A stretch of 64,000 nt of DNA from assembly GCA_051362555.1 (NCBI GenBank), contig CM120644.1, forward strand, positions 19,552,534 through 19,616,533, written 5' to 3'. The notes beneath the pieces were generated by a model. The model worked only from the letters and a program-made list of their open reading frames with translations. It did no database searches and was not told where the DNA came from. Origin of the DNA: Lingula anatina. Taxonomy: Eukaryota; Animalia; Brachiopoda. Each line of letters starts with the position of its first letter. Positions within the stretch are counted from its first letter, which is position 1. Below, piece by piece: positions 19,570-60,413 of this stretch. The translations under genes were made by a program, and so were the position numbers.

Positions 19570-19970
19570 ATGAGCTCCGACGAAGCAGAAGCGCAAAAGT
19601 CCGCTGAAAGGCAGGTGTAAGGTAAAAACACAATCACGGTTGAGACACCGGTTGGCTAACCTCGCGTCAGGTCCGATAATTTACGAGATTCAAAACGTCA
19701 ATGGAGCCTCTCGTGTTAGTTTTCTGCACTTGTCTCACCCAGTTAGTCTGCCAGCCGTGCCTGGTATGGGGTCCTGGGTTATAGTAGATGATAGGAAAGA
19801 ACGTACGGCAAAAACTTGGGTGTAGACGACAGTAGTCTAATGTAAGTTTACGCACTATCACTGTGTTTTCTCTACACTTAGCCTGGGCCTAGATCTAACA
19901 GTGACAGCAATGTAGCCTTGTAAGTTACAGGGCGTGTCTACAGTCACGGCTTACCACGTGGGTGCGCTGA
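19570..19970 (+). promoter_or_regulatory. Candidate Pol II promoter/first-exon region
   Basis: Locally unique segment retaining CpGs, just after a long poly-T (19470-19503). GTAAGT donor-like sites at 19842 and 19920. MYB-like sites CGGTTG (19637, 19649) and CAGTTA (19740). Confidence 0.35.
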
Positions 19971-21311
19971 ATTTGCTTAGCTGTTCCTTTTCTGTCGTGA
20001 TTACATATAATATTTTTATGCCTTTATGTGCCTGATTTGTGGCAATATTGCTGTCTTGACAAATAAGATTACATCGTTAATGTCTTTAATTATTTTAGTA
20101 AATTGAAATTTTTATAAATGTAAGTTCAATAGAAAAATCTGTATTCTTTGCACTAGTATATAACTTTTACAAGTTACAACAGGGCCCCGTGTCTCGAAAG
20201 CTTTGCCTATGGTGAGCGGGCGCAAGCATGGCAATTCCTCGCTATCCCATATCTAGCAAGCCTCGCAAATTGCGACCGCAGGGCCGTAGCCTCCGGGGGG
20301 GCAGCTGCCCCCCCCTGGGATTTGAGGTGCAAAAAAAAAATAATCGCAAAGGTAAAACAAAATAATTGCGAAGTTGGTATCAATTCTGTGAGGAAATGCA
20401 CTCATGGCCACTAGACAATCATTCAACAATCTGTTTACAAAGGTGTACTGTTTTTAGCCAACTCAGTTCATGCCAAAAAGCTCACCCTCCCTTAGGGAGC
20501 TATCCCCCAGGCTGTACTTATGACAAAATGAACCCACAATTTCTGACTTCTGATTGAGCAATAAATAGCAGTTAAAATGCACCAGAATGCAGTATTATAC
20601 GCACAGTTTTTTTAAACTTTTCCACACCGTTGGAGGGGGAGACCCCCTCCCACACCCTCCCCCCTCGAGGGCTTTGCCCCCTCATGTCCGCTTACTTGAA
20701 GGTATTATTTGTTGCAGTGGCCTCTGTGTATGCATAATTCGTCATTTTAATGTGTCTTTCATGTAATTAAACATGGTGGCAAGTTTGGGTTGCTAGTCAT
20801 AATAGCATATAACAAAACATTTAACAAAAACATGGAAGCTTATAATAGATTGAATCACTCGGTACCTCTGATAGAAAACTTGCTGTAAATATTCACGTGA
20901 AGAATGCTAAAGTCATGCTCATGTACAAAACATGAAATGTGGCAAGTTTTATGATAAATGGAATGTGAAAAGCCAGAAATGGGGAACCATGGTAACAGGT
21001 AATTGCACGGTCTCCTTCCCTTTCTCCACGAAGAAAAAATCGCCAGTAATCACCTCTTGTGTTTCTTTTGGGTTTGAGTAGTTTTTGTCTTGTTGACCAG
21101 TTACTGTAATTTTCCCACTTTCCTTACATTAAATCACAAAAGTGCACTTCAAGTAGTTACAGCCAACTGGTGTGCCTAATATTATAGCTTAATATAGATA
21201 TAGATATTAATATTGATCTCTATTTTTTACTGCTGTAAGGATTTACATATTCAAGTATCACAAATATTGAAACAGATTTTGCAAAGTTAACATTGTTTTC
21301 ATTTCTTTCAG

Positions 21312-21366
21312 TCTGGGAATAGTGCTAGTGTCAGAAGTCAAAGCTGTCACCAGTAGCCCTCACAAT
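21312..21366 (+). other. Candidate short non-coding exon
   Basis: Strong acceptor TTTCATTTCTTTCAG and donor GTAAGT around 55 nt. Confidence 0.4.
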
Positions 21367-21478
21367 GTAAGTACATTTGAATTTTTTTTTTCACAGTCCA
21401 GTCACCAAATTAGCTGGGGCAGCCAGCTAGCACACCATGAATTGGAATTTTTTGACAATTGATTTCTTCAATTATTAA

Positions 21479-21654
21479 AGGGATAACAACTATTCCTTTT
21501 GATAAAAAAAAAAAAGAAAAGATTTTCCTGGGGCAAACGACAATTTCCCCATACTTGTACCATGGTTAATGAATCCATTCCTACATTCATTCTATGAATT
21601 GTTTCATAGAATTCATTACAAAATATGAATCTTATAAGAACAGTTGTTATCCCT
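21479..21654. mobile_element. Kolobok-like MITE (short copy)
   Basis: TTAA|AGGGATAACAACT...AGTTGTTATCCCT|TTAA. Confidence 0.8.
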
Positions 21655-22215
21655 TTAAGATAAAGTGTGTCCCTTCACAAATCCACTGTTCCCAGTCAGC
21701 CACTTGTGGTCATGAAGGTGTCTGGAGATGTCACCAGAAGACTCCCAACATGGCTTTAACTCCATAGAAACTTCCCCTGGACCCAGTTGATTACAGAGGC
21801 ACCTGGAAAAAGTGGTGTTCATAGTAGTAACTTGACATTTGTTTGCCAATGTTCCCTATGTGTATATGCATAATCAACCATATAATAATGATTACATGAT
21901 TCATGTTCAAGGATGTACTTTCTGAATCCGTGAAAATGGCCACAGAATGTAATTATATTTCAGCAGGTGCACTAATACTACCAATACCAATTGCCAGATT
22001 TTCACAGAGATTGCTTTCTAACGTTATCATGGCATTAAGTCATATGGCACAGTTCATCATGCATATGGGTGGTGCTTGATTTAGAATATTCTTTCTTGCT
22101 TTGTTGCATGTTGGATCATGATGAACCATACTCTTAATTTACCATGTTTTACAGTCATATATGATTGCAGAGGATATTTGAGTTGTTTGCTGGAGTTTTT
22201 GTAATGATAGTTTAA

Positions 22216-22752: not shown

Positions 22753-22955
22753 TTACATGTGTGCCTGACTTCTTCCATTTGGATTTAAAAAGGGTGTTAA
22801 TAGATAAGGCTGAACAGGGTACCCTGAATCCCCTAGTAGGTAACTCTGGGACATTTGGCCTTCATTGAACTTCTGCTGGATATTGGATGAGGTGCAAACA
22901 AAGGAGTCATGTGTAGACCCTGGCCACTTTGCCACCAAATTGGTGAATCTGAAAT
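22753..22955 (-). mobile_element. Harbinger (HARBI1-like) transposase fragment
   Basis: FTNLVAKWPGSTHDS...YLLGDSGYPVQPYLLTP. Confidence 0.9.
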
Positions 22956-23200
22956 GTTAACTTGTGCTTCCATCTTTCTGAAAAAGTGTTTTTCCCATTT
23001 GGGAATAAAGTTGGGAAAGACTGTGCTTCCTTGTTGAATGAAGATTCAGGATGTTGATTTTCTGATGGAGCAAAACATAATATTCTGTCTTTGTACTTAT
23101 CTAATATATACTGCAACAAATCTGGTTGCAAGCATGTTACAAGGAGTGCACTTGCTTTTGTAACTTCATCTTCAATATTATCTGAAAAATGCACTATTTA
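22956..23200 (-). mobile_element. Helitron/Helentron RepHel fragment
   Basis: ILCFAPSENQHP...EAQSFPTLFPNGKNTF...KLT, resembling the motif preceding the Rep domain. Confidence 0.65.
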
Positions 23201-23400
23201 CTTCAAAGTATTTTCACTATTATTACCTTTATTACTGGCAACTACGCACCGAGGTCTAGTGCCCATTCTCTTCTGGATATGTGCATTCTCCTTAAGTAAT
23301 CTCGGTGATCTGGCATGGAGAGGTACGCTGAAATCTTCTCAGCAGAAGTGTTCCCCCTTGCAATAGCTCGCATTCCTAGTACACTTGCCCTGTTGACTCC

Positions 23401-24040
23401 TTAAATAATGTCCGGACCATAGGGCTGCTGTTGCTGGATTCTCCAGAAGGCTGAGCTGTCCCCATCCCCTACAAATGGATTGTATCGTAATCCATAAAGT
23501 TCCATGGAACGACTGTATAAAACAGACGCACCCTCAGCTTCCATGGCCTGGGCTGAGCCTTCGTGGTTGTGGTGGCACTCCTCTAAGTGTTTCAGTTGAA
23601 AGTCAACCTCTTCCGCCGTGGTTTGGAGCAGCTTTAGAAAATTGTCACATGTCCGACACATGGTACACATATAGTGAACGTCCAGAATTTCTCCCGTATC
23701 CAAATTGCAGCTACAAATCCATGTTTAGACAAGTTTCTGGTTTGCCAGGAACCGTCGATGGTAACCCCATAGTCCACAATTTCCCTTGGATCGACATTGC
23801 TCCCTGGGAAGACCTGCTTCACGGGAAGCGCGGTGCCATCCATGCTTTCCTGAGCTCTCTCCCTGGCGGGGTTGCCTAAGGCCTGGGTGTAGAGACACCA
23901 ACTGTTGTTTGCCACTGGAGCTGGCATGGAGAGGTACGCTGAAATCTTCTCAGCAGAAGTGTTCCCCCTTGCAATAGCTCGCATTCCTAGTACACTTGCC
24001 CTGTTGACTTCGAAATACCTCCCTATCTTTCGTGACATAG
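23401..24040 (-). mobile_element. Kolobok-type (Mutator-like domain) transposase fragment
   Basis: FEVNRASVLGMRAIARG...GVTIDGSWQTR...TGEILD...C..C...CHHNHEGSAQAMEAEGA...RS...LRY..FVGDGDSS, with one frameshift. Confidence 0.8.
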
Positions 24041-26270
24041 AATTCCAGCCAAAATATGTTGAACCTGGCCTCATTGACATTACTAGCTTCCTTCTGTCTA
24101 TAAAGATTGCAGACAAATTGTTCCATCACTTTTGATTTTCTTTCTGCAACTGCGAAGACTGCTCAAAGACAGGAGAAAGCCTCTATGAAGTCACTATTGC
24201 CAAAATTCATGTATATTTCAAAAGCTTTCCTCTCTCCTTTCCCCAAAAAAGGGGTTGCAGATTGTTAGAAGCACTGGAAGTTTTGGTATGCCAAGCATCG
24301 AATATTTGAATTCACTAAATGAGAATAGAATTAATAATTTTTTTTAAAGTGTGTAGATGATTCGTTGTAACTTTGCCTGCCTTAAACATAGCCAGCCATC
24401 CTGTGTTTTTCAGCAGTTCCTCCAGTTAGTCCATGTATTGAATCTTTGTAGGAAAGTGTGGGTAGTCCTGCCAAAGATTTTGTCTATTCTCTTCTGATAC
24501 TGGACTGAGCTGGGAGGTCCACAGCTGGCTTCTCCCAGACTCAACCATCTGGATCTATCACAACATTTCTTGCTGGGTCTGCTTGATACACCTAACTGTA
24601 AATCTGTAAATTTAAAAATATATATATAAGTACAAAAGAAGGTTTTACATGTACTTTCAAGTCTTTGTTGAATACAATCAGTCCTAAACAAACATATGCA
24701 TCAAAAAATAAAGAATAATTGTTGACAATGTATTTTTTTCTTCCAACACAATGTTTTAGGCACCAAACAAATTTTGTACACACCAGTCACAGCCGAGTTG
24801 TCCATTGTATTGTTTGCAGTTCCTTACCAAAGCCCGTGCAGGGCTGTCTGTGCAACAGATGAATGGAAATACGTTGAACCCCTTGAAAATGAATGCATGA
24901 AGTGAATAATGAAAAAACTCAAGCCTTAACAGATAAAATCACCGAATATTGTACCAAATATCTTTTGGCATACTAAACCAAAATGAAGTTATAATAGCTT
25001 GATCTTTGGAGAATTTACCCATTTGACCAAAAAAAAAAAAAAAGTGGAATTCCAGGATCCCTGCTGATTGAGTGTTTTGTTTTATAATTAAGTTTCTGAG
25101 ATTAAAAAAAAAATTAAAATATGGCTGCCTTGCCAAACTTGCCCACCTGTATGGCAACTATGTGGTGATCAATGGGCATACAAGAATTATCTCTTAACAC
25201 TCAGCTCAGCATGGCATGGCTTGTTGGCCTCTTCACTGTACATTGCAATCAGACACAACAAAACAGTAACCTGATTTGACAGCACTGAAGTCAAAAAGAC
25301 CTACTTGGGTTTAGGCTATTTGCAACCTTACATCTTTGATCTTTCAAAAGAGAATATTCAGTTTCTGTTTTATCTTATAGGTCTTTGGGGGGGGGGGGGC
25401 ATTTCACTTTCTTTTTGGCATATCTTGCTTTCTTCTCACTTGTGGACTCTTTCAGGGAGTCAGGAAGACATGTGTTCTATACTACATGTTATGTTCAGTT
25501 GCCTATCCAAATAAGGTAGGAAAATGTTGCCAGCATAATAATCCAATGTGTTGACACTGGCAGGAAGACTGGACAATGGTTGCACCATGTAGCACCTCAC
25601 AGTCATATGTTGATGGCTGATCTGGCTGCTTTCTTCTCAGGATTGATCTTTATAATGGCTTTTCTGAAGAGAGCTGAGGAATTCCTCTTGGTAGAAGTAT
25701 AAATGGACACTGTGCGTCCATAGAAAAGACTATCTAAAGAAACTGCTGGTGTTGTTTCTAACATGTCCATATGAAAATGCTGGGTTCTCAGTCAAATATA
25801 AAGTTTGACCTGTACTTAACTTTTTACCATATTGTTCTTCTGCTCATGGGCCTGATTGTATGGGATGACTGAAAACAATTGGCTGTTTCAGAAATCACGC
25901 AGTTTGAAGCATTTTTCAGTCTTGCACAGCAGAGACTTAAGGACAGACACCTACCTGGCCTAGTAAACATGGGTCAAGGTAAAGAAAAGGTGCTGCCTTA
26001 TTCAATGCTTCAACATGAAAGGAAAATACTTTCTCCTTATGGGCTCTGCTACACAGTAGAATGAAGGTTTCAGTATCTGATCCTAGAACGTGAGTGTTGG
26101 CCAGATTCTTATGTAGCCCAAGCCTTTTCTCCAAGTGTGAACCTCTTTTGAGCTGAGAGATTGCACAGGGTTAAGTGCAAGATGATGAGCACCGTACACT
26201 TGTTTTGAGCCAATGTGAGGCCTTCATAGAAAAAAAAGAGATCTTTCCAGTCTTCTAAGAGATGGCACCA
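24040..26270 (-). mobile_element. Academ transposase (XPG-like region) remnant, fragmented
   Basis: Collinear minus-strand motifs: DCEVLHGATIVQ...YAGNIFLPYLDRQL (~25600-25490), YSEEANK (~25235; cf. HEEADTR), F.GKG.RKAF (~24245) and MEQFVCNLY...VNEARF (~24130-24055). Confidence 0.65.
24779..24870 (-). mobile_element. EnSpm/CACTA (CMC)-like transposase fragment
   Basis: FPFICCTDSPARALVRNCKQYNGQLGCDWC (D.PAR......NG..GC..C motif). Confidence 0.7.
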
Positions 26271-29375: not shown

Positions 29376-29399
29376 TTAAGGCATCTGGCCAACAATACA

Positions 29400-30245
29400 T
29401 TACAATCTGTATAAACACAGAAGACATATACAATCAAGGCTTTACATACAGAAATAAATTATAAATATACCATACATATACAAGTATTTCATTTACATAT
29501 CTGGAAGGTTAACATTGTTATCTACTATTTTACTTCTTAGAGCAAAGGCGTTTAATAAAAATCTAGCCAGTGAGAAAATACTCTCTCTCGTCAGACATTA
29601 TAGTTGTAAACAAATGTTTATTTGGAAAGCAGGATGTCCATTCGGTTCTAAAGTATTTCAGTCTGAATTCATCATACAAGGGGCATAAAAGTAAAAAATG
29701 CATTTCGTCTTCAATTCTGTAAATGCCTAGTTTAAGGCATGAGCTCATGACTTGAGCAATGAAAATTTGAAAGTATTTTCCTTTGCTTGTAGGTTAAAGG
29801 CAGTGAAAGGTATCGTTCAGGATTTAAAGCGCTTTTGTAGAGTTTATAACTGATGCATTTAGATGATACATTAATATCGGAAAATGTAGTTTGTTGTGCA
29901 CAATCTGTTATTCTAGTTCTAAATAAACTTAAAAACGCCTCTGTGTCCCTGATATCGTTAGCTATCCAGGCGTATCCAAAAACATAATGAAATAATAAGT
30001 TTTTAATACAAGTTGCCCAGGATGACCTTCCTTCAGTGTCTAAACGGCGTGAATTTGTTCAACTTTTGCGCACTGTTGAAATCCCCATATTTCTGCTGCA
30101 TATATTAAAATCGGTTTCACAGTTGCATCGAACAATTTAAAGGCTTCTTGATAATCAAAATATCCAAAATATTTTTGACAGCAAAATATTGCATTAGATG
30201 CCTTTATCGCTTGTTATGACAAATGTTCCTGCGTTCTAGACCAAG
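29400..30245 (-). mobile_element. CR1/L2-group LINE ORF2 3' remnant
   Basis: LFDATVKPILIYAAEIWG...WATCIKNL...FGYAW...IEDEMHFLLLCPLYDEFRLKY. Confidence 0.8.
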
Positions 30246-30249
30246 CACA

Positions 30250-30445
30250 TTGTCATCAGTTGGTCCTATCTGTTCCACATTCTGGTAGATATTAACTTCA
30301 ATCAGGTCTCCGTTAAGACACACTGGAGAAGGCAGCCACATGCATGATGCAATTTTCATTTTCTAGTCTGTCTTCTATGGGGCTCAGCTCACGACAACAT
30401 ATGCATTCTAGTCCATTAGACATTGGATGACATGTACACTTAAAT
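30250..30445 (-). mobile_element. P2X7 C-terminal-like Cys-rich domain fragment (transposon accessory protein)
   Basis: CTCHPMSNGLECICCRELSPIEDRLENENCIMH..FSSV. Confidence 0.6.
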
Positions 30446-30516
30446 TGCATTTATGGTAAAAACGAGGTTGGTTTGAATTTGCCGACTGGCAAGTGGGGCG
30501 GCTTTGGGACGGCATA

Positions 30517-31316
30517 CGGTAAAGTCTTGAAAATTTCGTCGCTTAAAAATTAATTAATATTTTTAATTGTGTAAATCCGACTAATTTTTCAAAATTACCT
30601 CTCCCCGACTCCTGGGTATGACGAAATTTTCAAAAATCCGGTCTTTGGGCTTTTATCCTTAGCGACTGTTATCTTTGACCCTCCTATAGTGTGGGATATT
30701 TATTACTACTTCTTAAGTCATTTTCTGGTGGTAAATAATAATCTATTTATTAGTGCATCTCGATTAAGTTATATTTAACTTACTTTGTACCCGAAAACAT
30801 GTTGAGAATTATTTTCTCGGTAAGAAACATACCTCCTGATAGAGGAGAAGGATCAAGATAAGCCTAATTGCAACCTTGCATCATAACCTGGACGCGACAT
30901 GTTAAAAAAAATTACGCACTTGGGAACGTTTGTTGCATGCAGGGCTTTTCCCAGGATTGAGCCTCAGGCCTTCTAAAATTAACATCTGTAACTTCCTTAA
31001 AATTTACTGGGAGTTAAAATAATGATCTCCCGTTGACGATCTTCCGCAATTTAAGTTCCTTGAACTAATATGAAAACCGCATTTTATTATTTCTTACATC
31101 GCGAACAATCTCCCGATGAAGATGTGAAAATTGCCTTTTCGTCTAGCAAGGATCGCGAACGATCTCCCTCTGATATGATCTTACGCGAACAAAGTCCTGA
31201 GAAACCATGTCCTGAGAATATTACGCGAACGATTCTCCGCCGAAGATATACCGTGAGCGGGGCAGGGGGCGGATTAAAGATAAAATGAAAATGAATATTA
31301 TAAAAAAATCCAAAGT

Positions 31317-31347
<31 letters not shown>

Positions 31348-33168
31348 GGGGGGGGTTAAATAATCATCTCCCGCTGCGATCTTCCGCAAACGAAGTTCCC
31401 TAAATCCCTTGAACTAATATGAAAATTGCATTTCATTCTTGCTTTCATCGCGGACGATCTCCCAATGATGATATGAAAATTGCCTTTTCGTCTCGCTCGG
31501 GTCGCGAACGATCTCCCTCTGACGATTTTACGCGAACGAAGTCCTGACGATAGTACGCAAACGATTCTCCGCCGAAGATATGGCGTGAGCGGGGATGGGG
31601 GGTTTAAGATAAAACGAAATATATATATTATTTATAGTATTCAGAGGGGGAGGCGGTGTTAAAATAATGATCTCCCGCTGACGATCGTTCGCAAACTAAC
31701 TTCCTTAAACTAATATGAAAACTGCACTTTATTATTGCTTACATCGCGAACAATCTCCCGATGAAGATATGAAAATTGCCTTTAGGCCTACGTCAAGCTA
31801 GGATCGCGAACGATCTCCCTCTGATATGATCTTACGCGAACAAAGTCCTGAGGATATTACGCGAACGATTCTCCGCCGAAGATATACCTTGAGCGGGGGA
31901 AGGGGGGTGCGGATTAAAGATCAAATGAAAATGAATATTTTTTAAAAATCCAAAGTGTGTGTGTGTGTGTGTGTGGGGAGGGGGGGGGGTAATTAATATC
32001 CCGCTGACGATCTTCCGCGAACGAAGTTCCCTAAATCCCTTGAACTAATATGAAAATTGCATTTCAGTCTTGCTTACATCGCCAACGATCTCCCGATGAT
32101 GATATGAAAATTGCCTTTTCGTCTCGCTCGGATCGCGAACGATCTCCCTCTGACGATCTTACGCGAACAAAGTCTTGACGATATAACGCGAACGATTCTC
32201 CGCTGAAGATATGCCGTGAGCGGGGGAAGGGGGGGTTAAAGATAAAATGAAAAATATATATTATTTATAAAATTCAAAGGGGGAGGTGGGGTTAAAATAA
32301 TGATCTCCCGCTGACGATCTTCCACGAACGAAGTTCCCTTGAACAAATATGAAAAGTGCATTTTATTCTCGCTTACATCGCGAACGATCTCCCGCTGAAG
32401 ATATGAAGATTGCCTTTTCGTCTCTCTCGATATCGCAAACGATCTCCCGCTGATGATCTTATGCGAACGGAGTCCGCTACAAATATGAAAATTATCTTCT
32501 CGTCTCGTTTGGATCGCGAACGATCTGTTGGCGGTATTACGCGAACGATTCTAAGCTGAAGATATGAAAATTGCCATCTCGTCCCATTCGCATTGCGAAC
32601 GATCTCCACGTACTAGCCAGGTAATCGTTAAATGGTCCTAAATTGAACATGGACATGAATAGAAGTGACGGGTACATTTCACGTCGAGATAATATCTTGA
32701 TTTTTTCATTGTGTCTTCCCCATTTAGGACAGCCGCCGATAACAATAACGGCGTTACAAATGACAAAGCCGCGGCCTGTGACTTCTATTTGCCGGCTTGA
32801 TAACACAGGTAATAGTAATGCAACTAAAGACAAAAGGCCGACGTTCCCGCAACTGAGAACGGGAATTCACATCTTAACCATCTATATTGTGAGTAACCGC
32901 TCGCAGGGGCGCACTATTGTTCCTATCTCCCATTGAGAGTGTTATCGGCAATGATATCCTGATCGTATCATTGTCTTGAATCAACTGACGCATTAACTTC
33001 ATGTTTGAGCTGGACAACGCGGCCATTTTTGGTGACGAACTTTTCAAAAATTATCGAGTATCTCATTTTCAAGGTCGACGAAGTTTTCAAAGGGAAAAAA
33101 ATTACGTCGGTGGAAAATCGTCTGCCGACGAAATTTTCAAGAATGACGAAATTTTCAAGACTTTACCG
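30517..33168 (+). mobile_element. 2.65-kb non-autonomous TIR element with TA TSD and internal CGCG-rich tandem array (copy 1)
   Basis: TA|CGGTAAAGTCTTGAAAATTTCGTC ... GACGAAATTTTCAAGACTTTACCG|TA. Internal ~300-350-bp repeats at 31020-32610. Confidence 0.9.
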
Positions 33169-33409
33169 TATGCTTAATTGTCTTTTTGTACAAATATGCA
33201 ATCTTAAGTAGTGTAATGACTGGATTGATTGCAAGATCTAGAAGTTTAATGATTTTCTGCAATGACAATAAAATTAACTCCATAGTTTTGATCAACTATA
33301 AACAAACGTACTTTCTCCTACCATTCAGTATTTTCTAGGGGTGGATCCTCCCACTCATTAGCTGAAAAATCTCCTTCAACCTCTGATTCATCGTAATGCT
33401 TACTTTCGA

Positions 33410-33600
33410 GGGGCGGGGGGTCCAATTGACACCGTTTTTTCTCCCAAAAATTATTTGTTCAAGCAGCTTGTGTGGGTAGGGGCATTGTCTTGAAAAAAGC
33501 AGTGGCCTTCAGGGAGAGTTTCACTAAGGAATGGCAGATGGAAGTCTTATATAAATTCAACATTCATCAGCCCTGAAAGTTTGGTTGCACCCATTTCAGA
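33410..33600 (-). mobile_element. Tc1-like DDE fragment
   Basis: LPFLSETLPEGHCFFQDNAPTHTS...F.GENGVNW. Confidence 0.65.
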
Positions 33601-33778: not shown

Positions 33779-33897
33779 ATTAATTTATGAGTTTTTTTAT
33801 CATTCTCAAAATAATGTATTGGATATAAAATATATACAATAACATATATACATTTTCGACAAGTCAATAAAACAACAAAAGTAAATAAATATTTTAC

Positions 33898-34911
33898 CTG
33901 TACATTTAGGCTGTGTCTGCCCTTTCTGTTCACAAAATCTGGCTCCCTAGCCCCAGTTGGTGCCAGTATATGTACGTGAGTACAGTCGATGGCACCTATT
34001 ACATTGGGCATTCATGTGGAAAATTTTGAAGAAGTTATGAAAAGAAGTTACCAAATATATATTGATGGCCACTTGACCTCCATATGCTGGTTTTGAATCC
34101 AAATATTTCGCTTTTCTTGCAACCGCTCTCCCTACTTTAGCTAACGTTCCATATTGCCCGCCATTGTTTATCCACTAAGCGCAACATGACCTACTTTATA
34201 TCTGTAGGTGAGACGAATGCAATATTGTAAGCGCCCTCTATGTTTTTGAACGCTGTCTAATTTAAATTGGGTCAATTGAAGGTTGTGCACTTACCGGCAA
34301 GTTGGAAAAAGCCCTTCTTTACTTCTTCAAGTCGCCTTCCATTAGGAAACTGTACGAACTGTCCTGCAAGACGTGTTATTTCCACAGTAACTCTTCTTAT
34401 CACTCTGGACACAGTTGCTTTGGATATCCTGGGGATTGTATCCCTGACAACAAACATAAACAAACCAATGGCTACAAATCCCAAAGTTATCAATAACTGA
34501 AATAATGCCGGTATTGAGTGACTTCTATTGGTTGGAGGTTGAATTGTATTAATAATAAACTGGAGGATAAATAAAATAGAATGTCTTCTAAACCTAAAAC
34601 GCTCCCTCAGCTGATCGTCATTAAAATAATCTAAAGGATTTTCACGGTCTCTGAAGACACGCTCTCTTCGAACAGCTTGACGATGAAGATTATGAACAAC
34701 TGCGGCAGCGGCCATTTTGCTGATAGCGACAACTTAAGTCTCCTCCCGAGGAGGCTTGACATCGTCGACTTACAGCTAAGAAAAAAACGACGTAAGCGAC
34801 GTTTTAGATTCTTTGTGAAACGGGACTTAGTGACGTAACGACTTAATTACGTTGGTAACCAAGCCCTAAGTCAGGGAAACCGACTTAAGTTTTTTTGTGA
34901 AACGGGGGCCT
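33898..34911 (-). mobile_element. Harbinger element 5' end with spliced HARBI1-like transposase exons
   Basis: TIR AGGCCCCCGTTTCAC at 34911. Exon 1, 34715-34294: RRERVFRDRENPLD...RERFRF...QLLITL..A.G. Exon 2, 34011-33898: PNVIGAIDCTHVHI...FVNRKGRHSLNVQ. Confidence 0.9.
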
Positions 34912-34984
34912 GGTCATTCTGCATATAGGTGAGGCACTGTGCTTGTAGGTTTTATCAGCATGGAAGCGTGTGCGTGTCTTCACA

Positions 34985-35112: not shown

Positions 35113-36069
35113 TATGATTTAACACAATTTCTTTGCATTTCATTTATATACCAGGTAATTTCTCTAAAGATAGTTATTAGTATTAATCATCAAACCAAAG
35201 GGATAATGCAGTTTTGGTTCCACAACAAACATTTTCTTTATTGGACTCTTTTAGTTTGAAGAATTGTGATGCTGAGCATGAAATAGATAATTGCGTGTCA
35301 AATCACTGGAGGTTGTCACATGAACAGTAAAGACAAAAATACAAAGACAATACTAAGTTGGACTCCAGATCATTTATCTGAAAATGAAATTTAGCACTAG
35401 TAGCTATAGGCTTTTGTCTTTTGTCCCCCTTCCCCCTCCAATGCAACAAATTATATCCCTCATGAATAGGCTTTAACACCAATGTTAATAAAATTAAAGC
35501 CCTATAACGTGTGTGTGTGTATGTGTGTGTGTGTGTATATATGTATATATATAGTAAGCAACCTTGTCAGCTTTCACAGCAGCAATTTTCTCCTTGACTG
35601 CTTTATTTCTATCAGGTCCATGGTGGCAGTCTATGATGATTTCACTGAAGATCATGAAAGGTATCACGTCAAATTCTAACCATCCAAGTAAAGTAACTTG
35701 TCTTTGATTCTGTAGTACATGTTTAAGATATACTTAGTGTTCACACTTCAAACAATCCCTTTACTTCTTTATTGGCAAATGTGTTCCTTATCAGATTGGT
35801 GCCAATTTCAGTGCCAAATTTTCGACCTACATGTGGAAACTGTAAGTGTTGCACCATGCAGGTCCATTTTTCTTCATTCTCCTTTGATCTTGATATCATC
35901 TGATTACCTCTCACTATGATGCTACAGCGTCACTGGAATTTAATCTTACCAAAAGGTTGCATCTTGCTTCTTATCTACATTTAAGTCTAATCTGGACATG
36001 TATGGGGAATAAACATTGAAATAAAAATAATAAAACCATGGATTTATGATTTCTCTCAATACCCCTTAG

Positions 36070-36210
36070 CTAGAAACTGTCTTTTCCACTCCTCAAAAGA
36101 TGAATTGTCTGTCTCGGCACAGTACCAGTTTCCATAGTATTGTCTATGTGCAAGGGCCTTGCGTTCTGTGTTGCACTTTTTACAGACATATACACAGATG
36201 AAGTCTTTTT
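36070..36210 (-). other. Cys/His-rich C-terminal fragment of a probable DNA-transposon protein
   Basis: YVCKKCNTERKALAHRQYYGNWYCAETDNSSFEEWKRQF. Confidence 0.45.
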
Positions 36211-41413: not shown

Positions 41414-41769
41414 ATCTAATTTCAGTATGATGTGATTGAACGCAATCCTACTATAATATACTGAACTATATCATGACAATACGAGCACAATGAACCACAT
41501 GTACTTGCATAATATGTGGAATCGAAAACATGGAAAAGGTCAAGGACGTTTCAGAGCACTGACTGTGCGCGAGAGCCATCTGGTGTTAAGTCTGCGAATG
41601 ACCGTTTGCGGTAACTGACTTTTGAATAGTTTATTGATAGTTAGATTATGACGAATGATTAAAATGACCAAAACTAATTTAGTAGAATTAAGTTTAGATA
41701 GTTAAAGTAGGTTTTCGCTGTTAAATAGTGCCGATAGATTGTTGAATTGAGGTCTGCATTTTTTGCGTG

Positions 41770-42520: not shown

Positions 42521-42789
42521 ATGTTCTCATTCTTGTTCTGGCGTGCTGGACGCTGGGAGCATATGTTATACGTTCTGTTCTAAAGAGCTCTCAAATGTAC
42601 TTTTGTTTTTCATTGACGAAGCTTATGATTGGTTCACGTAAACTAACTTAGACCAATCAAATGTAACGAAACAAAAGCGAGAAAAACACAACAACAAACA
42701 GAAATATTTTAGGCCTAGGTTTTTAATCGGCAAGATTACAACACTTTTGAAAGTAATTAGTTGTGGCTGTCATACATTAGGGTCAAATG

Positions 42790-43680
42790 ACACACTAGAT
42801 CATATTTTGTGCATCATTTTAAGGATTTATGCGTATTTTACACCTGACACAAACATAAATAAAACACTGATGTTGCTAGCTTCTTTTCTTTAAGTTGCTG
42901 ATCTTCATTGACCTGCATTTCTAATGACTTGAGTTCCTGGTTCAGTGATCCCAGTTTACAAAGCCCACCAGCACACTGCTGCTTTTACTGTAGAAAAGGT
43001 CAGATTTAATTTTAATTTCATCGAACAGAAGAGAAACATTCTTCTGATGTTCTGCAAGCTCTGAAAACTTGACAGCAGTAAGATGTCATTTTAAACTACT
43101 TGGACTCACACCACTAGAGATTGAGCCTGCATTCTCATAATCAAACAAAGTTCTGCAAGTGGGAAGTTTCATAAAACCACTTTGTGAAATGAATTCATAT
43201 GCAGTAGATGACATGGCCCCCAGATTCATGCACCATTTCATCATGGTTAAATGCCACCTCATTTGTTTTGCACTTTTCTTTTGGGTTGCCTGCAGCTGCT
43301 CTGTCCACAGGAGTTCTTGTACGGAACCTTCTGGAAACTCTGATGTGTTTGACTGAAGGATGTCAACCAACTTATCATGCAAATCTGGTGAGACACTGAC
43401 TCCTTCTTCCACACTCCGATTTTCAATTTTCCTCAGCTTTTCTTCTCTCTTTTTGTTCTGCTTCCGTCCAGCCTTTTCCACTTCCTTCACCATTTTTAAG
43501 CGTTCACTGTACAGTTAGGCTATTGATGGGGGCATGGCTGCTTGGACTGGTGTTGGACTTGTTTTCTTTGTTGGTTTCTCTATGGAAGATGCTCAGTAGC
43601 GTAGGCCTGCATTTGGCACAAGGTGCACATTTTTCATTATTACTGGTAATTAACACTGGACATTCAGATTGTCTTACTGT
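42790..43680 (-). mobile_element. P-element/THAP9-like transposase remnant
   Basis: MRWHLTMMKWCMNL...SSTAYEFI..SGFMKLPTCRTLFDY...SG; LLFDEIKIKSDLFY. Confidence 0.85.
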
Positions 43681-44169
43681 TGAAAAAAGGTTTGGCCCCT
43701 AATCTTGATGGAAAAATTGCTTTCCTTGGCAATGACTATTTACACAGGAATATATAGAAAACTGCAAGTCCATCTTTATTGTGGTTCCTGCATAACTGAA
43801 TAATACTGTCCCCACTGCTCCCTACACAGATTTTACCACATTTCTGATGCAGTAAAATCAATTCAGAGTTCGAAGTTATCTTCTCTGGTACATCACTGAA
43901 GATAGGATTCCTGGTGTTTGAGGTTTTGCTTGAGCACAGCCCACAAATTCTCAATTTGATCAAGGTCCGTACTCTCTGGTGGCATTTTAAACTAGTTGAT
44001 ATTATTGTCTTTATTGAATTGCTTTGCCATTAAAGTGTTTTACTCTATTTCTAAAAGCAGTAAAATACACTTCTGGTGCTTACTGAGAGTATTGTCTGTT
44101 CCTCCTGTTTGGTAGGAACAGCACTGCTTTGTAGTATAATGGAATCTTTTCTAGAGCGTGATGCGTCTG

Positions 44170-44302
44170 TCTTGAGCACTGATCTGGAGGGATCTAGGAC
44201 CTCACATGGTTGGCTGTTACTTTATATGTGGGCATCCCAGCGCAGTCCCCATAAGCGCAACCGAAATCCCAGGATCCTCTTGGCAGTGACAGAAAACACT
44301 AC
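44170..44302 (+). repeat. Second copy of the 34985-35112 repeat
   Basis: Direct similarity. Confidence 0.8.
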
Positions 44303-44309
44303 ACCAATT

Positions 44310-44440
44310 TGCTGGTGTACTTTGAGTCCATTGCCTTGCAAAAATCTATGTTTATCTGTCATTTTGTCCGTAATGAATGGAACCAGATATCCCCGTAAAA
44401 CCTCCACAAAAAGTTCATTGATTTTCACTTTTCTAATGTA
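44310..44440 (-). mobile_element. Tc1-like DDE fragment
   Basis: EVLRGYLVPFI...HRFLQGNGLK (degenerate HRFxQDNDPKH). Confidence 0.5.
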
Positions 44441-44974
44441 AATATGTGACAATGCATTTAACTCACCTATGCCTATCCTTGAAATAATAAATAGTAAGTC
44501 ACAGCCGTGAAATTGAAAAAGAACAAAATGTGAAGTAGGTCTTTCTCCAATGAAGTCACTGGGTGGAGTGAAATGAAATGTCCAAACTAATGGGAGTATC
44601 CCTAAACTTAAAGTTATCACTTATGCAAATGAACGTTGCATCAGATGTGCCAAAACGCCGGCTTCTCAAGCACATTAAAAGTGCTAACTAAATCCTACAG
44701 TGATTCAATATCAAGTATCACCAATTAATAATCTTAACTATTTTTTTGCCTTGACAAAATATGAAATTATGAAACAAATCTGCCGTCCCTTTGCTATAAT
44801 CAGTTTATCGCAGATATTACTGAAGTTACCACAAGGACCAAAATACATTTGCAAATGTCAAATATCAAACAAGGTAAATTAATGTACAGTACAGTCAGTT
44901 GCAGCCTCTTTTTCTGTCCGTCTCACACCCAAAAGAAGTCTTTGGCAACTTAATACCTTCACATAGTGTAGCAA

Positions 44975-45830
44975 ACTACTAGCCATCAGATGAGGAGGCA
45001 TTGGCACCAACCATATACCAAACAAAGTTGTACTCAGCATCAACTATGGCGAGCAGGACAATGGAAAAGAACCCCTTGTAATTAAAGTACAATGAGCCAC
45101 TGTTGTTTGGCTTCTTGATTGCCACGTTTCCCATCTATTTCTCCACATGTGAAATGAAAGTTCCGCCTCGAACTAAATTTGCGCACTACATCCTTCCAGC
45201 CATCTGCAGTTGAGGGTGATGTGAAGAGTTTGACCTTGTTCTCCTCATATCATATCTGTACACACTTCTGGTATGAACTTGGATATGGTGTTATGAGCCA
45301 CCCTGAAGTTGAATGCCAGACTGCAGTAGCTTGCCCCTGTTGCCAGGAACCGCAAGGTGATGGCAAGTTTCAATCCTGGTTCCAATGGTCTACGGCCTCT
45401 TAAACATAGAGCAAGGAAATTGGTGAATACATTATTATGGAACATAATGATGTTTAATCTAAAAATGTATGTATTTAATATCACTACTCTTATCTAATCA
45501 TTGCGGTGGAAGTGGCTAATGTTTTCATTCACTCCTATCACTCTTGGTAATCCTTGGAGTGACTCAAAGGAGGAGTTCAGTGAACAGGTTTTGGTCGACC
45601 CGTAGGTATTTCATAAAGTCACCCTGTGATTCCCATTCAAGCTCTATGAAAAGTGTATGGTACTGTCCAAAGAACCTTTTCCTCTCTATCCAAGGTCGCA
45701 CCCAGAATCACCTAGCTCTTGGATGGCTCTGTTTCTCTTGCTCTCTGATTAAGGCCATCAAAACTAGGTTGTGCTCGTGTTCAACTTTGTAAAAAATTTT
45801 GTTTATTCTTTCTGTTATATACATTTTGTG
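44975..45830 (-). mobile_element. Harbinger transposase remnant (second family)
   Basis: WVRPWIERK..FGQYHTLFIEL...F.KYLR; RRPLEPGLKLAITLRFLATGASY.SL.F.FRVAHNTIS; IKKP.NSGSLYFNYKGFFSIVLLAIVDAEYNF. Confidence 0.9.
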
Positions 45831-45982
45831 TGCCATGTCTCTGATATAATTTAGTCTATATTTAGATCTAACAGGACCAGGTGCCTTTTTGTTTTCTTCA
45901 TCTAAAGAATCATGCAAAGAATCATCATAATGTTACGGTAAAAAAATTAAAGTAACAAAAATTAAAAATGAAATGAAATTAA

Positions 45983-46613: not shown

Positions 46614-47814
46614 TTAATGTTTTTTGCAACTAAAATTATTATAAACAATTGTCAAAATTTGAATGTAGAGGTAATCATTTCATTTATGCAATTTAAATGA
46701 GTTAACACAGCCAATAGAGATTACAACTTTTTTTAACTCCTAAGATTCCTTTTGGCTGTGTTCATGGTAGTCACCATTTTGCTCCAAAAGTTGTCTTCCC
46801 TATGATTGGGGTAAAATTTATGGACAGTATTTCTTATGAACCCCACTCTAACAACGTCCATCGACGCGCGTTTGTCTTGGTCTTTGGATGATCCCTTAAT
46901 ATTCCTTGTCGGGTCTGTTCTTTTAGTAGTAGTAAAAAGGCTTCGGCTCTACTATTTTGTCATTCATGAGTTATTGTATATCGTCCATTTTCTTATGAAG
47001 TTCCTCCAGTTTGTCCATAATTTTAACAGGTACCCTCTACAATCGCACTGCAACACAGACGCAGGTTGCTCTTGACCATTATTGGCCCTGCTGCACCTAG
47101 GGCCAGCAAGGGTCCAGGCTAAATATTCAAATAACCAAGAAATGTAACTATTGGTATCAACTGCAGCAAGGGAAGAAGTCTTTCTGACTTGGATTTTTTC
47201 AGCATTTCTCAAAAAAGATTTTGTAGTTCACTGTATTTAAAAAACAAATAATATATACATCTACAGCAGACATGCTGAAAACTCTGAGGGCAATGCAGGC
47301 CAATTGGCCTGCTTAGATCTGAATATTGCAGGCCCGGACAAGATATTGCCGGCCCAAATGTTTTTCGCATTAATTTGTATATTTACCCTATTTCGCGTAA
47401 AAACTGTGCACTTTTAACTTCTGCTTTATACACTTTCAAAGGACAGTTGAGTAGCAATTAGGTGATTAAAAATCAAATAACTGCATCTTTGAATAGATCT
47501 TTTATTGAAGAGACATTTTACTGCTCAGATAACATCTGGGTAATATATGACTTAGAGGTAAACTAAGGGCCAAAAAGGCATCAAAACTCACAGAAAACAA
47601 ATTTTCCATAGGTAAACTGCAATTTTTGTAGACTAACCTTAAACCAGGCCTTACCTGAGCTAAATCATCCATCTAAACTACCCAAGAGCACTTTTCCAAG
47701 TTTTGAGTTTCTTAGCAGCTTTAGACAAAATGTCAAATTATCCCAACCTACACATGACTTTAACTTGCATTATATAGAGCTTAACAGTAAATTGTATAAC
47801 TCTGAAGTATCGAA

Positions 47815-50788: not shown

Positions 50789-50847
50789 GGACTTGGCAGC
50801 TGATGAAGGTCAGTTGTTGACCGAAAAGCGCTTTCTGCAACCAGTCC
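50789..50847 (+). ncRNA. Predicted minimal type I hammerhead ribozyme
   Basis: Stem I GGAC(U)..GCAG / CUGC..(A)GUCC; core CUGAUGA(A); stem II GGUCA-guugu-UGACC; GAAA; palindromic stem III A-AGCGCU-U; NUH triplet UUU. Confidence 0.65.
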
Positions 50848-56833: not shown

Positions 56834-56879
<46 letters not shown>

Positions 56880-58029: not shown

Positions 58030-58031
58030 TA

Positions 58032-59370
58032 TTGATTTTAGGAGGGCCGCTGTTGCTTAGTTTTTGGCTAGGCGGCTAGTATTTTTCATCCTAATGACTC
58101 GCAACTTTTAACAAGGTTTAAGATAGATGGTACAGCAGATGTGATTCTAGTTCTGTTAAGTTAGACCCAAGTGGTGTTAAGACCGAGTGAGTATCCTGCG
58201 ACTTCTTTATTTTTTAATGTTTTCTTTATTAGTTATATTTGGGCTTCTCGCCCTAGGGTCATGATTTCTTTCAAAGTAAAGAGAGGGTTTCTCGCCCTTG
58301 GGATGGGACAAAAGAGTGGTCTTGTGGCTTGTTTATTTATTACAATATATATATATATATGAATATTATGGTATTGCTTTTCCTGAGCATGTGTGTAGCC
58401 CTGAAAAGGGCTGTATTAAATTTGTGTTGCTGGCTCATTTGAGGCACTTCAGGGTGGCAGCTGTGCGGCGTTTTGCTTTAGTCGATGTGAAGATCTTCTT
58501 CTTCTTGGATTCCATTGTTAAAAGCAGAGTGCGGACCTGTTCCAGTAGATCTGGGTTGGTGTTGGGAGTCGGTTGAGGGCTGGCGTTGATTTCGTACGTC
58601 CCATGCATTTTAAAGAAGGCCTCTGCCTTGCTTTCGCGGGCTAGGGCTTCTTCATGGTTCTCCTTGGCCTTTTTCACAAAATACTCTATGTGGAGTTCGA
58701 TTGTATGCTTGATCTGCAGCCTTGTTCTGGATTTCAATTAGCTTGGTGGTGAGAGCTTCGTGGCCAGGACATCCTTTAAAATCTATCCTGGCTCTGACTT
58801 TGTGTGTTCCCCTTTCTTGTTGCCGGTTTATGTGGTTCACCCTCTCTGTACATCCTGTGATGTACTGTTTAGTTTCCATCACCTCCTCGTAATGTGGGTT
58901 ATTAGAGTCGCGTGGGGAACTCAAAGGTGCGGGTCGCTTGGGTTTGGGCAGAATGCCTTTTGGCGGTCCTGTTTTGTGCCATTTCTGAGAGTCATGTTGT
59001 CTTGGTTTCGGCCACTGGTGGTTCTCTCTGTTGTGTCTAAAGTTGTTGTGTTTGTAGGCGTTCTTTCTGCTTTCTGGATACTTGATGATTGATTGCCTCG
59101 AGACAGACTTATGCTTGCTTCCATGATTGTTCTCATTTTAAGTGTTCGGTGCACGGATGTTAACGACCTCCTCTGAGATTCTAAATTTTGATTTGTTAAT
59201 GTGATTTGTGCTTTGTTTGTAAGCACTTAATCCCTCTATGATTCGATTGGTGGAATTATTTTTTAGGTCGGCTGATGGGTTGGTAATTGATTGGTCATTT
59301 CTCTGAGTTGCCTCAAGATACAGTTTTCTCGAGGTCATTGGTTGTTTGTGTAAGATCTGTAAAAGGATCC
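58032..59370 (-). mobile_element. Probable retroelement (Penelope/LINE ORF1-like) 5' coding remnant; continues at 55400-55640
   Basis: Chain of overlapping A/C-rich minus-strand ORFs (59374-58435), including HINRQQERGT...; family not certain. Confidence 0.35.
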
Positions 59371-59459
59371 TCACTGTCGATCATCTCTTGCATCAGAAAA
59401 ACCCAAAAAGTCACCCCCCTCATCACTGCTAAACAAAACATCTGGGACAACATTGGCTG

Positions 59460-59880
59460 GACAGGATCCCTCCCCCTTCAACACACTGATGATCCCAGTT
59501 GTTTAGAACGACTTGACAACCATTTCGGGGCTGATATTGTTCCATGCCGACGCCACCCATGCAACAATGCCCTGTTAACTGGCCATTGACAATTTCTCAA
59601 ACTTACCCTTTGTTTCCATGGCTAACCGTTGCATGTGCTCCGTCCACATTTTCCTTAGGTGTACCTTGAACGGTCTATTCAAGGACATTTCTAGGGGCTG
59701 GGCCCTAGCTGTACAGCCCCAGGGATGACAGCCATGGTGGCATTGGCTTTGCATGCCACCTCCCTCACTTTCTCGGTTGTGTAGGCAGAAAACGCTTGCC
59801 ACAGCCCTCTCTTTTCTCGGTTGTGTGGGCAGAAAACACATCCAGGATTATTAGGGCTGGTCGTCTGTCCATGTAAGGCT
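59460..59880 (-). mobile_element. pogo-like DDE_1 transposase remnant
   Basis: AFSAYTTEKV...MAVIP.GCT..QPLEMSLNRPFKVHLRKMW...WVASAWNNISPEMVVKSF..TGI. Confidence 0.85.
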
Positions 59881-60413
59881 GCAGAATGTATCTGAGCCAT
59901 TTGTTTGAGCTGGGTGTGGGAGGTTAATAGTGGGAGTCATCTTTGGTACTAAATGTAGTGCAAATAAATGTAAGCTGTCACTCCTCCAGTGAAACTTAAG
60001 GGTGGCTTGCTAATCCCTACGTGACTTGTCATAGTTTATGACAGATATCCGTTGTTATGATTTGGCCAACTGACCTACTTTGACTGCATGCATACGCTAG
60101 ATTGTCATCAATACACCCATAGTTAACAGCTATGCCAATATGGGCGAGTTGGCTGTAGCCCATTGGATTTGATTAATGTTTTCTAACTTCGCCTTCGTGG
60201 GCGCTGGCGGTACACATGGTTTTAGTCCCGACCCGTATGTTCCTGCGGCTCCGCCGGCTCCTGCGACTCCTGCAGCTCCGCCGCCAAGTCACCGTTACCG
60301 CTTCTCCTCCTAGACGATAAGGGCCTCCATACCCATCTCTTGGATTTAGGTCACCTATAATCTCAACTCGTTCCACGTAAAATTTGGGCTTTGTCGGTAT
60401 TGGGGTCTAGGTG

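Follow-up and report, generated by a model that had tools for sequence, protein, structure and literature searches.

Uni-strand piRNA clusters are an already known class, described in slugs, planarians, and Nematostella (PMC11615739, PMC12506671, PMC5731801). In Arion vulgaris, clusters validated with small RNAs carry transposon fragments densely packed on a single strand, while the piRNAs come from the other (PMC11615739), and unidirectional clusters were described as the main piRNA source of Deroceras laeve (PMC12506671). DNA transposons, Kolobok and hAT among them, were reported to be enriched in the piRNA clusters of Lymnaea stagnalis (PMC6128900). What defines flamenco-type clusters is their antisense Gypsy/LTR content; in the flam-like clusters the strand bias is described as driven exclusively by Gypsy, syntenic examples cover 227–1,085 kb, and expression takes place in ovarian follicle cells (PMC10643416). 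Divergent cluster pairs with a shared start are known from mouse (PMC11615739). In this work, a 64,000-nucleotide stretch of the Lingula anatina genome (contig CM120644.1; hereinafter the window) was analyzed, for which a flamenco-like trap of antisense transposon fragments had been predicted at positions 19570–60000.

Stop-free stretches of at least 41 aa were collected between 4.7 and 61.3 kb, and 609 of 611 were scanned against Pfam (one satellite stretch and one low-entropy stretch were excluded); 421 of those scanned lie within 19570–60000, 201 on the plus and 220 on the minus strand. In this unbiased scan, transposon-type families were matched by 11 stretches of that span, representing nine remnants, all nine on the minus strand, and by none of the 201 plus-strand stretches. 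The four plus-strand matches at E ≤ 0.02 (EBV-NA1, Wx5_PLAF3D7, LRR_8, and Caskin-Pro-rich) all concern non-transposon families and fall under the curated cut-off. Targeted six-frame scans also revealed a Tc1 transposase remnant (43896..44620; DDE_3, 1.3e-5, at 43.9 kb) and a pogo transposase remnant (59432..59936; DDE_1, 1.5e-6, at 59.4–59.9 kb), both minus, and no plus-strand match for either. With a LINE tail, the tool-supported remnants between 19.6 and 60 kb number 12, and 12/12 are minus (two-sided p ~ 5e-4; p = 0.008 for the eight strict transposase remnants alone). The one-strand polarity of the coding remnants is real, as the original prediction had claimed for the region past ~20 kb.

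These minus-strand remnants form a mosaic of Harbinger, Mutator-like, hAT-type, P, Tc1, pogo, and LINE superfamilies. Three Harbinger transposase remnants matched DDE_Tnp_4, i.e., 22756..23045 (stretch 22756, 5.7e-10; tblastn 3e-11), a 5′ half with an intron at 33895..34920 (stretch 33664, 3.6e-4; HARBI1-like homologue 1.7e-23, also found by tblastn), and a 5′ part at 44982..45932 (stretch 44982, 2.3e-6). A Mutator-like transposase remnant, presumably of the Kolobok type, lies at 23307..24050 (stretches 23404 and 23637; PF20700, 1.3e-18 and 4e-9), and an ALS2CR8/CARF-like piece, which we take to be tied to transposons, at 35497..35733 (stretch 35497; PF15299, 2.1e-4). A plus-strand exception suspected near 35620 proved to be the reverse frame of this ALS2CR8 match. 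Two BEN-domain remnants were matched by stretches 40279 and 46736 (40279..40578, PF10523, 7e-11; 46736..46948, PF10523, 3.8e-4). The N-terminal transposase remnant at 41677..42579 (stretch 42187; zf-C17orf113, 3.4e-4) is presumably of the hAT type, and its 41.65–42.25 kb part gave no Pfam match. The P-element transposase remnant at 42945..43698 matched TNP-like_RNaseH_N (3.9e-6) and Tnp_P_element (1.9e-3) with stretches 42945 and 43089. For pogo, 405 homologues were found (best 3e-13), and tblastn with 150 of them gave exclusively minus-strand matches at 59–60 kb. The LINE-type ORF2 C-terminal remnant (29735..30213) matched unnamed ESM Atlas clusters at 0.98, eukaryotic where a taxon is recorded; its nearest named ESM family is zf-RVT (0.87), and the homologue search was empty.

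Approximately eight further minus-strand remnants were recognized by eye from motifs. They include a possible Helitron helicase remnant (21650..22100; weak motif, no Pfam or PDB match), pieces that we take to be Academ-like transposase (24060–24700 and 25500–26543; no Pfam match and an empty homologue search), and a presumably EnSpm/CACTA-like transposase piece (24790..24918; no matching Pfam family). By motifs that we assume to be diagnostic, a P2X7-like cysteine-rich piece (30316..30450) and a Tc1-like DDE piece (33340..33600) were also distinguished, both without Pfam or PDB matches, together with what is presumably the Zn-finger-like tail of a transposon accessory protein (36059..36460; no Pfam match). 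OB-fold-like pieces, partly duplicated as an internal repeat, lie at 38711..39660 on the minus strand; OB-fold families are among their named ESM matches (a weak lead, 0.81), and the PDB search gave no support. The minus-strand open frames at 58438..59380, previously considered Penelope/LINE-like, had no Pfam match and no viral relative, and none of the best 150 representative matches, for the one frame searched, covers them; a histone stem-loop-like hairpin (58373–58417; Rfam Histone3, E 0.0044, under the cut-off) adjoins them. Among the labels originally given, Academ, EnSpm, P2X7-like, 33.3-kb Tc1, Zn-tail, Helitron, and Penelope/LINE-like remain readings of motifs by eye; the chance level of 1e-4 to 1e-5 given with them is reached only when such motif-only pieces are counted.

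The fragments had been described as abutting; in the dense core (20.4–47.5 kb, ~27 kb), assigned coding remnants make up 38% of the sequence. Over the whole 19570–60000 span they make up 29%, and the array is patchy, with no coding remnant found in 47.5–58 kb. Some remnants may belong to one compound element, and independent events would then be fewer than fragments. CpG o/e among the remnants spans 0.05–0.85, and these differing decay states suggest a series of captures spread over a long period and not one event. No RT, integrase, or gag family was found in the 609 stretches (Pfam) or in 24 read-through frames, a search that very decayed LTR pieces could escape.

The statement that every fragment is on the minus strand holds for coding remnants and fails for non-coding elements, which are present in both relative orientations; this restriction of polarity to coding pieces was counted in favour of a piRNA source. 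A CpG-rich (CpG o/e 1.47) non-autonomous DNA element of 2.6 kb with terminal inverted repeats occupies 30514..33170, and its second copy, 91–96% identical, is inverted at 55641–58032. The CpG loss of the core copy versus the outside copy is 2 vs 2, and 3 vs 11; the core copy carries no extra loss and thus gives no sign that the core is methylated today. Within the CpG-rich gap, a minimal type I hammerhead-like motif of the Penelope/retrozyme type (50789..50847) lies on the plus strand, opposite to the array, and was counted against a piRNA source as it falls inside the 19570–60000 span, albeit outside the core. It is the only such motif in the window, against a chance expectation of 0.02. Penelope-type minimal hammerheads are characterized by a conserved core, helix I, helix II, and a palindromic helix III/loop 3 (PMC4209133), and the core, a 6-bp helix II, a palindromic segment, and helix I are all present here. 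Its lowest-energy fold differs from a hammerhead (z −1.5), Rfam gave no hammerhead match, and Pfam revealed no Penelope ORF in the vicinity.

The polarity is reversed left of 13 kb, where the plus strand carries all three coding elements, a Harbinger, a Tc1, and a broken LRP2-like gene. The last of these, an internally deleted gene copy (4800..10331) with a YWTD exon, an EGF-like exon, and an NPxY tail, has LRP2 residues 3350–3393 as its best PDB match, with an in-frame stop within the alignment; its frameshifts and NPxY tail were read directly in the sequence, its 4.8-kb exon has no PDB match, and a stop at ~10.33 kb closes its last exon. Nested in it is the Harbinger remnant (6434..8401), with a Myb/SANT ORF (Myb_DNA-bind_5, 5.5e-11) and transposase pieces (DDE_Tnp_4, 1.2e-3; tblastn with a HARBI1 homologue, 2e-6 and 8e-6, plus strand). 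The Tc1 remnant (11235..12360; PAX-like HTH, 4e-7; Sleeping Beauty transposase, 1.2e-6) belongs to a 3.5-kb element (10433–13940) whose 528-bp inverted ends are 97% identical. Further right lies a minus-strand tRNA-Gly(GCC) gene (17803..17873; ARAGORN; Rfam RF00005, 66.7 bits). The difference between three plus elements on the left and 11 minus elements on the right gives Fisher p = 0.003, with just three left elements, one of them a host pseudogene and one nested inside it. Satellites occur at both window ends. The flip is a hint of a divergent locus around the tRNA-Gly gene; the original prediction had overlooked it, together with the plus-strand hammerhead and the gap at 48–58 kb.

The CpG profile divides the window in a corresponding manner, as the depleted core is flanked by CpG-rich zones. 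CpG o/e is 0.20 left of a CpG-retaining zone between the arms (15000..20400), a candidate promoter region, 0.74 within this zone, 0.35 in the core (0.52 with its two CpG-rich inserts), where TpG/CpA are in excess, and 0.94–1.03 at 48–58 kb. Invertebrate methylation is concentrated in transcribed bodies, with promoters spared, and can also target transposons (PMC8857917). The profile agrees with a long transcription unit whose body is methylated and whose promoter zone is not; the CpG loss of the core could instead stem from transposon-directed methylation or predate the arrival of the pieces. The plus strand is T-rich over 19.5–60.8 kb (T/(A+T) 0.518), which was counted in favour of a piRNA source; A-rich coding strands on the minus yield such a skew as well. 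Splice motifs show no plus-strand excess (GGTAAG 3 plus, 12 minus), which, like the undepleted AATAAA given below, was counted against a piRNA source. An exon-like 55-nt plus-strand piece with a pyrimidine-tract acceptor and a strong donor (21312..21366) is a candidate precursor exon; the same scan gave four such pieces on each strand, i.e., no enrichment.

We consider it probable, judging from the DNA, that this is a plus-transcribed uni-strand piRNA source locus directed against DNA transposons. By analogy, its layout matches that of uni-strand piRNA clusters, in which dense, degenerate, shortened pieces of unrelated superfamilies share one strand; here, the transposon fragments are likewise densely packed, degenerate, and strongly biased to one strand. 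Putative plus-strand transcription would start in the CpG-rich zone at ~15–20.4 kb and yield a long Pol II precursor running through at least 20.4–47.5 kb, which would be processed into piRNAs of 24–31 nt complementary to the mRNAs of transposases and accessory proteins. An insertion in antisense orientation would bring in a new target and be retained, with deletions reducing it to its coding core; coding insertions in sense orientation would disappear, and non-autonomous elements, having no mRNA to target, would remain in either orientation. Some mammalian pachytene clusters bear pseudogenes and give piRNAs against host mRNA. An extended arrangement of this kind, in which a CpG-rich tRNA-Gly start zone would send a rightward precursor against at least a dozen DNA-transposon families and a leftward one antisense to Tc1, Harbinger, and the collapsed LRP2/megalin pseudogene, with piRNAs also against the host receptor mRNA, appears rather doubtful.

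An unlikely, but not negligible, alternative to a piRNA source is that the array belongs to a long gene or lncRNA on the plus strand, as part of its intron or body, and gives no piRNAs; selection would have removed sense insertions there, whose splice and polyadenylation signals interfere with the transcript. In mammals, intronic LINE and LTR elements show antisense bias, and DNA transposons were excluded from that orientation analysis as described (PMC3088655). A CpG-depleted body behind a CpG-rich zone suits any transcribed unit, and the exon-like piece would suit this one. However, there is no intact plus-strand host gene, as no plus-strand coding exon was found between 10.4 and 61 kb in the Pfam scan, and the obvious host for the intron allowed for in the original prediction is lost with the LRP2-like copy, the sole plus gene upstream, which is broken and ends before the array. 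Moreover, the plus strand shows no depletion of AATAAA (59 against 63 on the minus), the Harbinger within the LRP2-like copy sits sense, and purging alone leaves the enrichment for coding cores unexplained.

It is quite improbable that the locus descends from a former cluster, as a relic or by segmental duplication, with a polarity that came from piRNA selection, and is now silent or unprocessed. Most remnants are heavily decayed, the CpG-rich inserts occur in both orientations with no added CpG loss within the core, and the neighbours are a collapsed pseudogene and terminal satellites. However, well-preserved, CpG-retaining remnants are also minus (Harbinger 33.9–34.9 kb, o/e 0.82; LINE, 0.85; hAT, 0.71), which suggests that the filter acted recently. 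Fragments captured by a Helitron would share its strand, and one giant compound element of this type, or a few events, could give the polarity with no strand selection. Helitrons are known to capture gene fragments stepwise (PMC3288121), and possible Helitron and OB-fold pieces are in the array; this account is nevertheless very unlikely, as the Helitron label failed both Pfam and PDB tests, the decay states are widely spread, and the assigned pieces are all transposon-type, with none from ordinary host genes. No minus-strand Helitron end (hairpin and CTRR) bounding the array was found near 19.5–21.6 kb, where an old end could have decayed; the two minus candidates of the scan lie elsewhere and carry CTGG or CTAA ends, never CTAG. 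Chance, combined with a post hoc boundary and many scanned windows, is the least credible account: the three plus coding elements left of 13 kb lie outside the span, and counting the hammerhead with the tool-supported elements weakens the test (11/12, p = 0.006; at most three switches among 15, p = 0.03), but a test allowing for the chosen boundary gives p = 0.002 (at most one strand switch among 14 elements), or 5e-6 with motif-only pieces, and chance leaves the coding-core density and the matching CpG domain unexplained.

If the locus is a piRNA source, it would be a readable record of the DNA transposons silenced by this animal and a clean uni-strand case aimed at cut-and-paste elements, not retroviruses. 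The polarity of coding remnants together with the CpG profile could then suffice to find such loci in DNA sequence outside flies, for which prediction tools key on LTR content. As the class is known, the gain would be incremental, unless the divergent, pseudogene-bearing arrangement holds.

In the mammalian piC-DoG read-through clusters, too, a gene is followed by an array of transposons antisense to it (PMC11615739). Here, in contrast, the upstream gene is broken and 10 kb off, separated from the array by a sense Tc1, a tRNA gene, and a CpG-rich zone, so that a separate promoter seems likelier than read-through. In Drosophila flamenco and flam-like clusters (PMC10643416), as in this locus, fragments mostly oppose the inferred transcript and sense insertions are tolerated more toward the 3′ side; their discrete promoter has a candidate counterpart here. 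It differs from the flam-like clusters in its dominant DNA transposons, in showing no detected LTR remnant, and in a core of ~27 kb. The predicted preponderance of DNA transposons over LTR elements was borne out, and the flamenco-like reading keeps its trap architecture and loses flamenco or flam-like membership, which we reject because no Gypsy/LTR remnant, and hence no antisense enrichment of such elements, was detected in the scanned stretches and frames. Kolobok and hAT superfamilies are common to this locus and the clusters of Lymnaea stagnalis; those of L. stagnalis and Crassostrea gigas are also rich in Gypsy and young elements, whereas the pieces here are mostly decayed (which was counted against a piRNA source) and Gypsy was undetected, and the description of the clusters of the two molluscs (PMC6128900) gives no strand layout. 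The dense one-strand fragments resemble those of Arion vulgaris, with the difference that slug clusters are defined by mapped small RNA and the present locus by its DNA layout. By analogy, the slug uni-strand clusters and the DNA-transposon-enriched clusters of Lymnaea are closer models for this locus than flamenco.

The claim that the region at 19570-60000 is an antisense transposon trap with all coding fragments on the minus strand was examined with a Pfam scan of 609 out of the 611 stop-free stretches of at least 41 aa found between 4.7 and 61.3 kb, both strands being treated alike. Within the region, 421 stretches (201 plus and 220 minus) were covered, and 11 of them matched transposon-type families. 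All 11 are on the minus strand and represent nine remnants: three Harbinger remnants (DDE_Tnp_4), a Mutator-like transposase remnant, which we take to be of the Kolobok type, an ALS2CR8/CARF-like piece, two BEN domain remnants, a zinc finger remnant, presumably of the hAT type, and a P-element transposase remnant. The BEN and ALS2CR8 domains are assumed here to be carried by transposons. Four plus-strand matches at E ≤ 0.02 in the same region, all below the cut-off, belonged to unrelated families. Six-frame targeted scans indicated a Tc1 remnant at 43.9 kb and a pogo remnant at 59.4-59.9 kb, both on the minus strand, and gave no transposon match on the plus strand. For the pogo piece, 405 homologues were found, and tblastn with 150 of these matched, at the pogo site, only the minus strand; a HARBI1-like homologue mapped to the minus strand at 22.8 kb and 33.9-34.6 kb and to the plus strand at 7.5-8.4 kb. 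The LINE-like tail at 29.7 kb was supported by the ESM Atlas (0.98), with zf-RVT as the nearest named family.

The one-strand coding bias downstream of about 20 kb was thus confirmed for 12/12 tool-supported remnants, i.e., those backed by Pfam, a targeted scan or the ESM Atlas (p = 5 × 10−4; p = 0.008 for the eight strict transposases alone), and since several pieces possibly share one compound element, the independent events may be fewer than the pieces. The original prediction counted approximately 18 fragments; these 12 stand, but about eight minus-strand pieces recognized by motif only (Academ, EnSpm, P2X7-like, a second Tc1, Zn-tail, OB-fold, Helitron, and the frames at 58.4-59.4 kb) gained no firm support from the Pfam, PDB, ESM, homologue and viral searches variously applied to them. 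The suspected plus-strand exception near 35620 turned out to be the reverse frame of the minus-strand ALS2CR8 match. Overall, the strand observation largely holds and its piRNA interpretation is plausible.

Among the searches with single pieces, zero homologues were returned for the Academ-like piece and the LINE tail, and the lone metagenome locus of the latter was discarded because it had matched by chance, over 22 residues, where a bacterial dnaA gene lies. PDB searches were empty for the P2X7-like piece, the Tc1-like piece at 33.3 kb, the Helitron-like piece and the exon at 4.8 kb, and returned chance rows only for the OB-fold piece; no viral relatives were found for the 58.7-59.1 kb frame. 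The 24 read-through frames of 1600 aa (19.5-29.0 and 33.1-42.6 kb) added nothing on either strand in a scan less sensitive than the stretch-level one. Several local features were also recorded. A coding-like minus-strand stretch with a threonine run (41219-41500; Pfam empty) lies between the BEN and hAT remnants, the Kolobok-type remnant has a 92-bp direct duplication (99%) at both ends (23307-23398 and 23918-24009), and a 123-bp piece is present in two copies of the same orientation (34991-35112 and 44181-44303; 86% identical), the second of which breaks up the Tc1 remnant at 44 kb.

The array was initially described as spanning 19570-60000. It is dense at 20.4-47.5 kb (the core), where 38% is covered by assigned coding remnants, motif-only ones included, and a small group reappears at 58.4-59.9 kb, but zero coding remnants were found at 47.5-58 kb. 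Non-coding elements are present in both relative orientations, as exemplified by a 340-bp MITE at 22.2 kb and 29.0 kb. A CpG-rich non-autonomous DNA element of 2.6 kb with internal tandem units forms two inverted copies (30514-33170 and 55641-58032; 91-96%). In a long precursor these could fold back on each other into a large structure; they could also promote inversion of the intervening 22 kb. On the plus strand at 50789-50847 there is a minimal hammerhead-like motif (type I, as in Penelope elements and retrozymes) whose third helix is palindromic (criteria as described in PMC4209133); its core is the single match in the window, with 0.02 expected. Rfam gave no match for it and its lowest-energy fold differs from a hammerhead; it is probably an exception inside the 19570-60000 span, outside the core. 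A possible decayed second hammerhead core was seen near 50712. At 58373-58417 (minus), about 20 nt past the stop of the minus-strand frame 58438-58737, there is a hairpin resembling the histone 3' stem-loop (Rfam Histone3, E 0.0044, 26.1 bits, below cut-off), an unusual 3' end for a mobile-element-like ORF.

The GC content of the window is about 36%, and satellites occur at both its ends and at 54.1-54.7 kb. Positions 1-4700 form a higher-order tandem array (CpG o/e 0.16) of a 193-bp unit and longer units with splice-acceptor-like ends, which adjoins an LRP2-like gene copy and possibly consists of amplified intron-exon units, and a 146-bp satellite (CpG o/e 0.15), in which a higher-order repeat of 1 kb is seen, occupies 60900-62922. 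By zone, the CpG o/e values are 0.20 (1-10.4 kb), 0.74 (15-20.4 kb) and 0.94-1.03 (48-58 kb). For the core the value is 0.52, or 0.35 once two CpG-rich non-autonomous inserts are left out. TpG/CpA is in excess wherever CpG is low. From this patchy depletion and the set of transposon superfamilies we infer mosaic methylation of the invertebrate type, which is described as concentrated in transcribed bodies, sparing promoters and also targeting transposons (PMC8857917). A transcription unit that coincides with the core and has long existed would fit the profile; because such methylation also targets transposons, the profile does not prove such a unit, and it gives no direction. Against such a unit, in a paired-copy test of the 2.6-kb element the core copy showed no extra CpG loss versus the outside copy, one comparison leaning the opposite way (3 vs. 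11, p = 0.057). The AATAAA counts (59 plus vs. 63 minus) do not support a plus-strand transcript, and no plus-strand excess of splice motifs was seen. The T-richness of the plus strand (0.518) would also follow from having A-rich coding strands on the minus strand.

The observed layout is probably best explained by a uni-strand piRNA source, with transcription, processing and selection inferred to proceed as follows. A plus-strand Pol II precursor would start in the CpG-rich zone at 15-20.4 kb and, once processed, yield piRNAs in antisense orientation to the mRNAs of transposons; coding insertions landing antisense would be retained and cut down to coding cores, those landing sense would be lost, and non-autonomous elements would be ignored by the filter. 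As well-preserved and heavily decayed remnants alike obey the minus-strand rule, a lasting filter is suggested. An intron or lncRNA body could likewise have been purged of sense insertions without piRNAs; however, no plus-strand host exon was found, and the mammalian study considered here left out DNA transposons, as far as described in PMC3088655, and we regard this reading as unlikely.

At 4.8-12.4 kb (the left arm), 3/3 coding items are on the plus strand. They comprise an LRP2/megalin-like gene copy (4800-10331), a Harbinger within it, and a Tc1 remnant in a 3.5-kb element (10433-13940) with 528-bp inverted ends (97% identical), one of which presumably resembles an Academ terminus. The LRP2-like copy has frameshifts, and the exon that matches best contains an in-frame stop; the part between residue ~3390 and the NPxY tail is far too short for a whole gene, and this pseudogene keeps introns and lacks about a thousand residues between the YWTD exon and the membrane-proximal EGF/NPxY exons. 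The arms differ in strand (Fisher p = 0.003; at most one switch among 14 elements, p = 0.002), so coding pieces of both face the 13-20 kb zone. This would be expected from outward transcripts; as the left arm has only three elements, of which two are nested, it is a lead only. A divergent piRNA locus with a pseudogene-bearing left arm is accordingly regarded as an unlikely reading. In the CpG-rich zone between the arms, an intact tRNA-Gly(GCC) gene lies at 17803-17873 (minus). tRNA genes may act as boundaries, making this one a candidate for such a role. Also there, a palindromic MITE-like element (18744-18941) has a centre resembling a microRNA hairpin (18798-18887; Rfam mir-3836, far below cut-off), which, sitting in a 92-nt inverted repeat, was taken as a MITE and not as a microRNA.

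Less likely than the intron or lncRNA body is a relic or duplicated cluster. A single giant compound element, e.g., a Helitron (stepwise capture of fragments by Helitrons is described in PMC3288121), is very improbable, as the end scan found no matching end on the minus strand near 19.5-21.6 kb. Chance is the least credible explanation of all.

A uni-strand piRNA source, the preferred reading, has counterparts among described clusters. Those of the slug Arion vulgaris are reported as mostly uni-stranded, and in a top cluster the piRNAs lie opposite transposon fragments packed at high density (PMC11615739); unidirectional clusters are given as the main piRNA source in Deroceras laeve (PMC12506671), and 402/457 clusters are listed as unistranded in Nematostella (PMC5731801). 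Kolobok and hAT enrichment is described for Lymnaea clusters (PMC6128900), and read-through and bidirectional clusters are mentioned for mammals (PMC11615739). The likeness to flamenco proposed originally applies to layout and not to membership: flam-like clusters share their architecture with the present locus, but PMC10643416 ascribes their bias to Gypsy alone, and at the present locus LTR remnants were not detected. Uni-strand clusters are thus a kind already known, of which this locus, a candidate from its DNA layout, is plausibly an added example.
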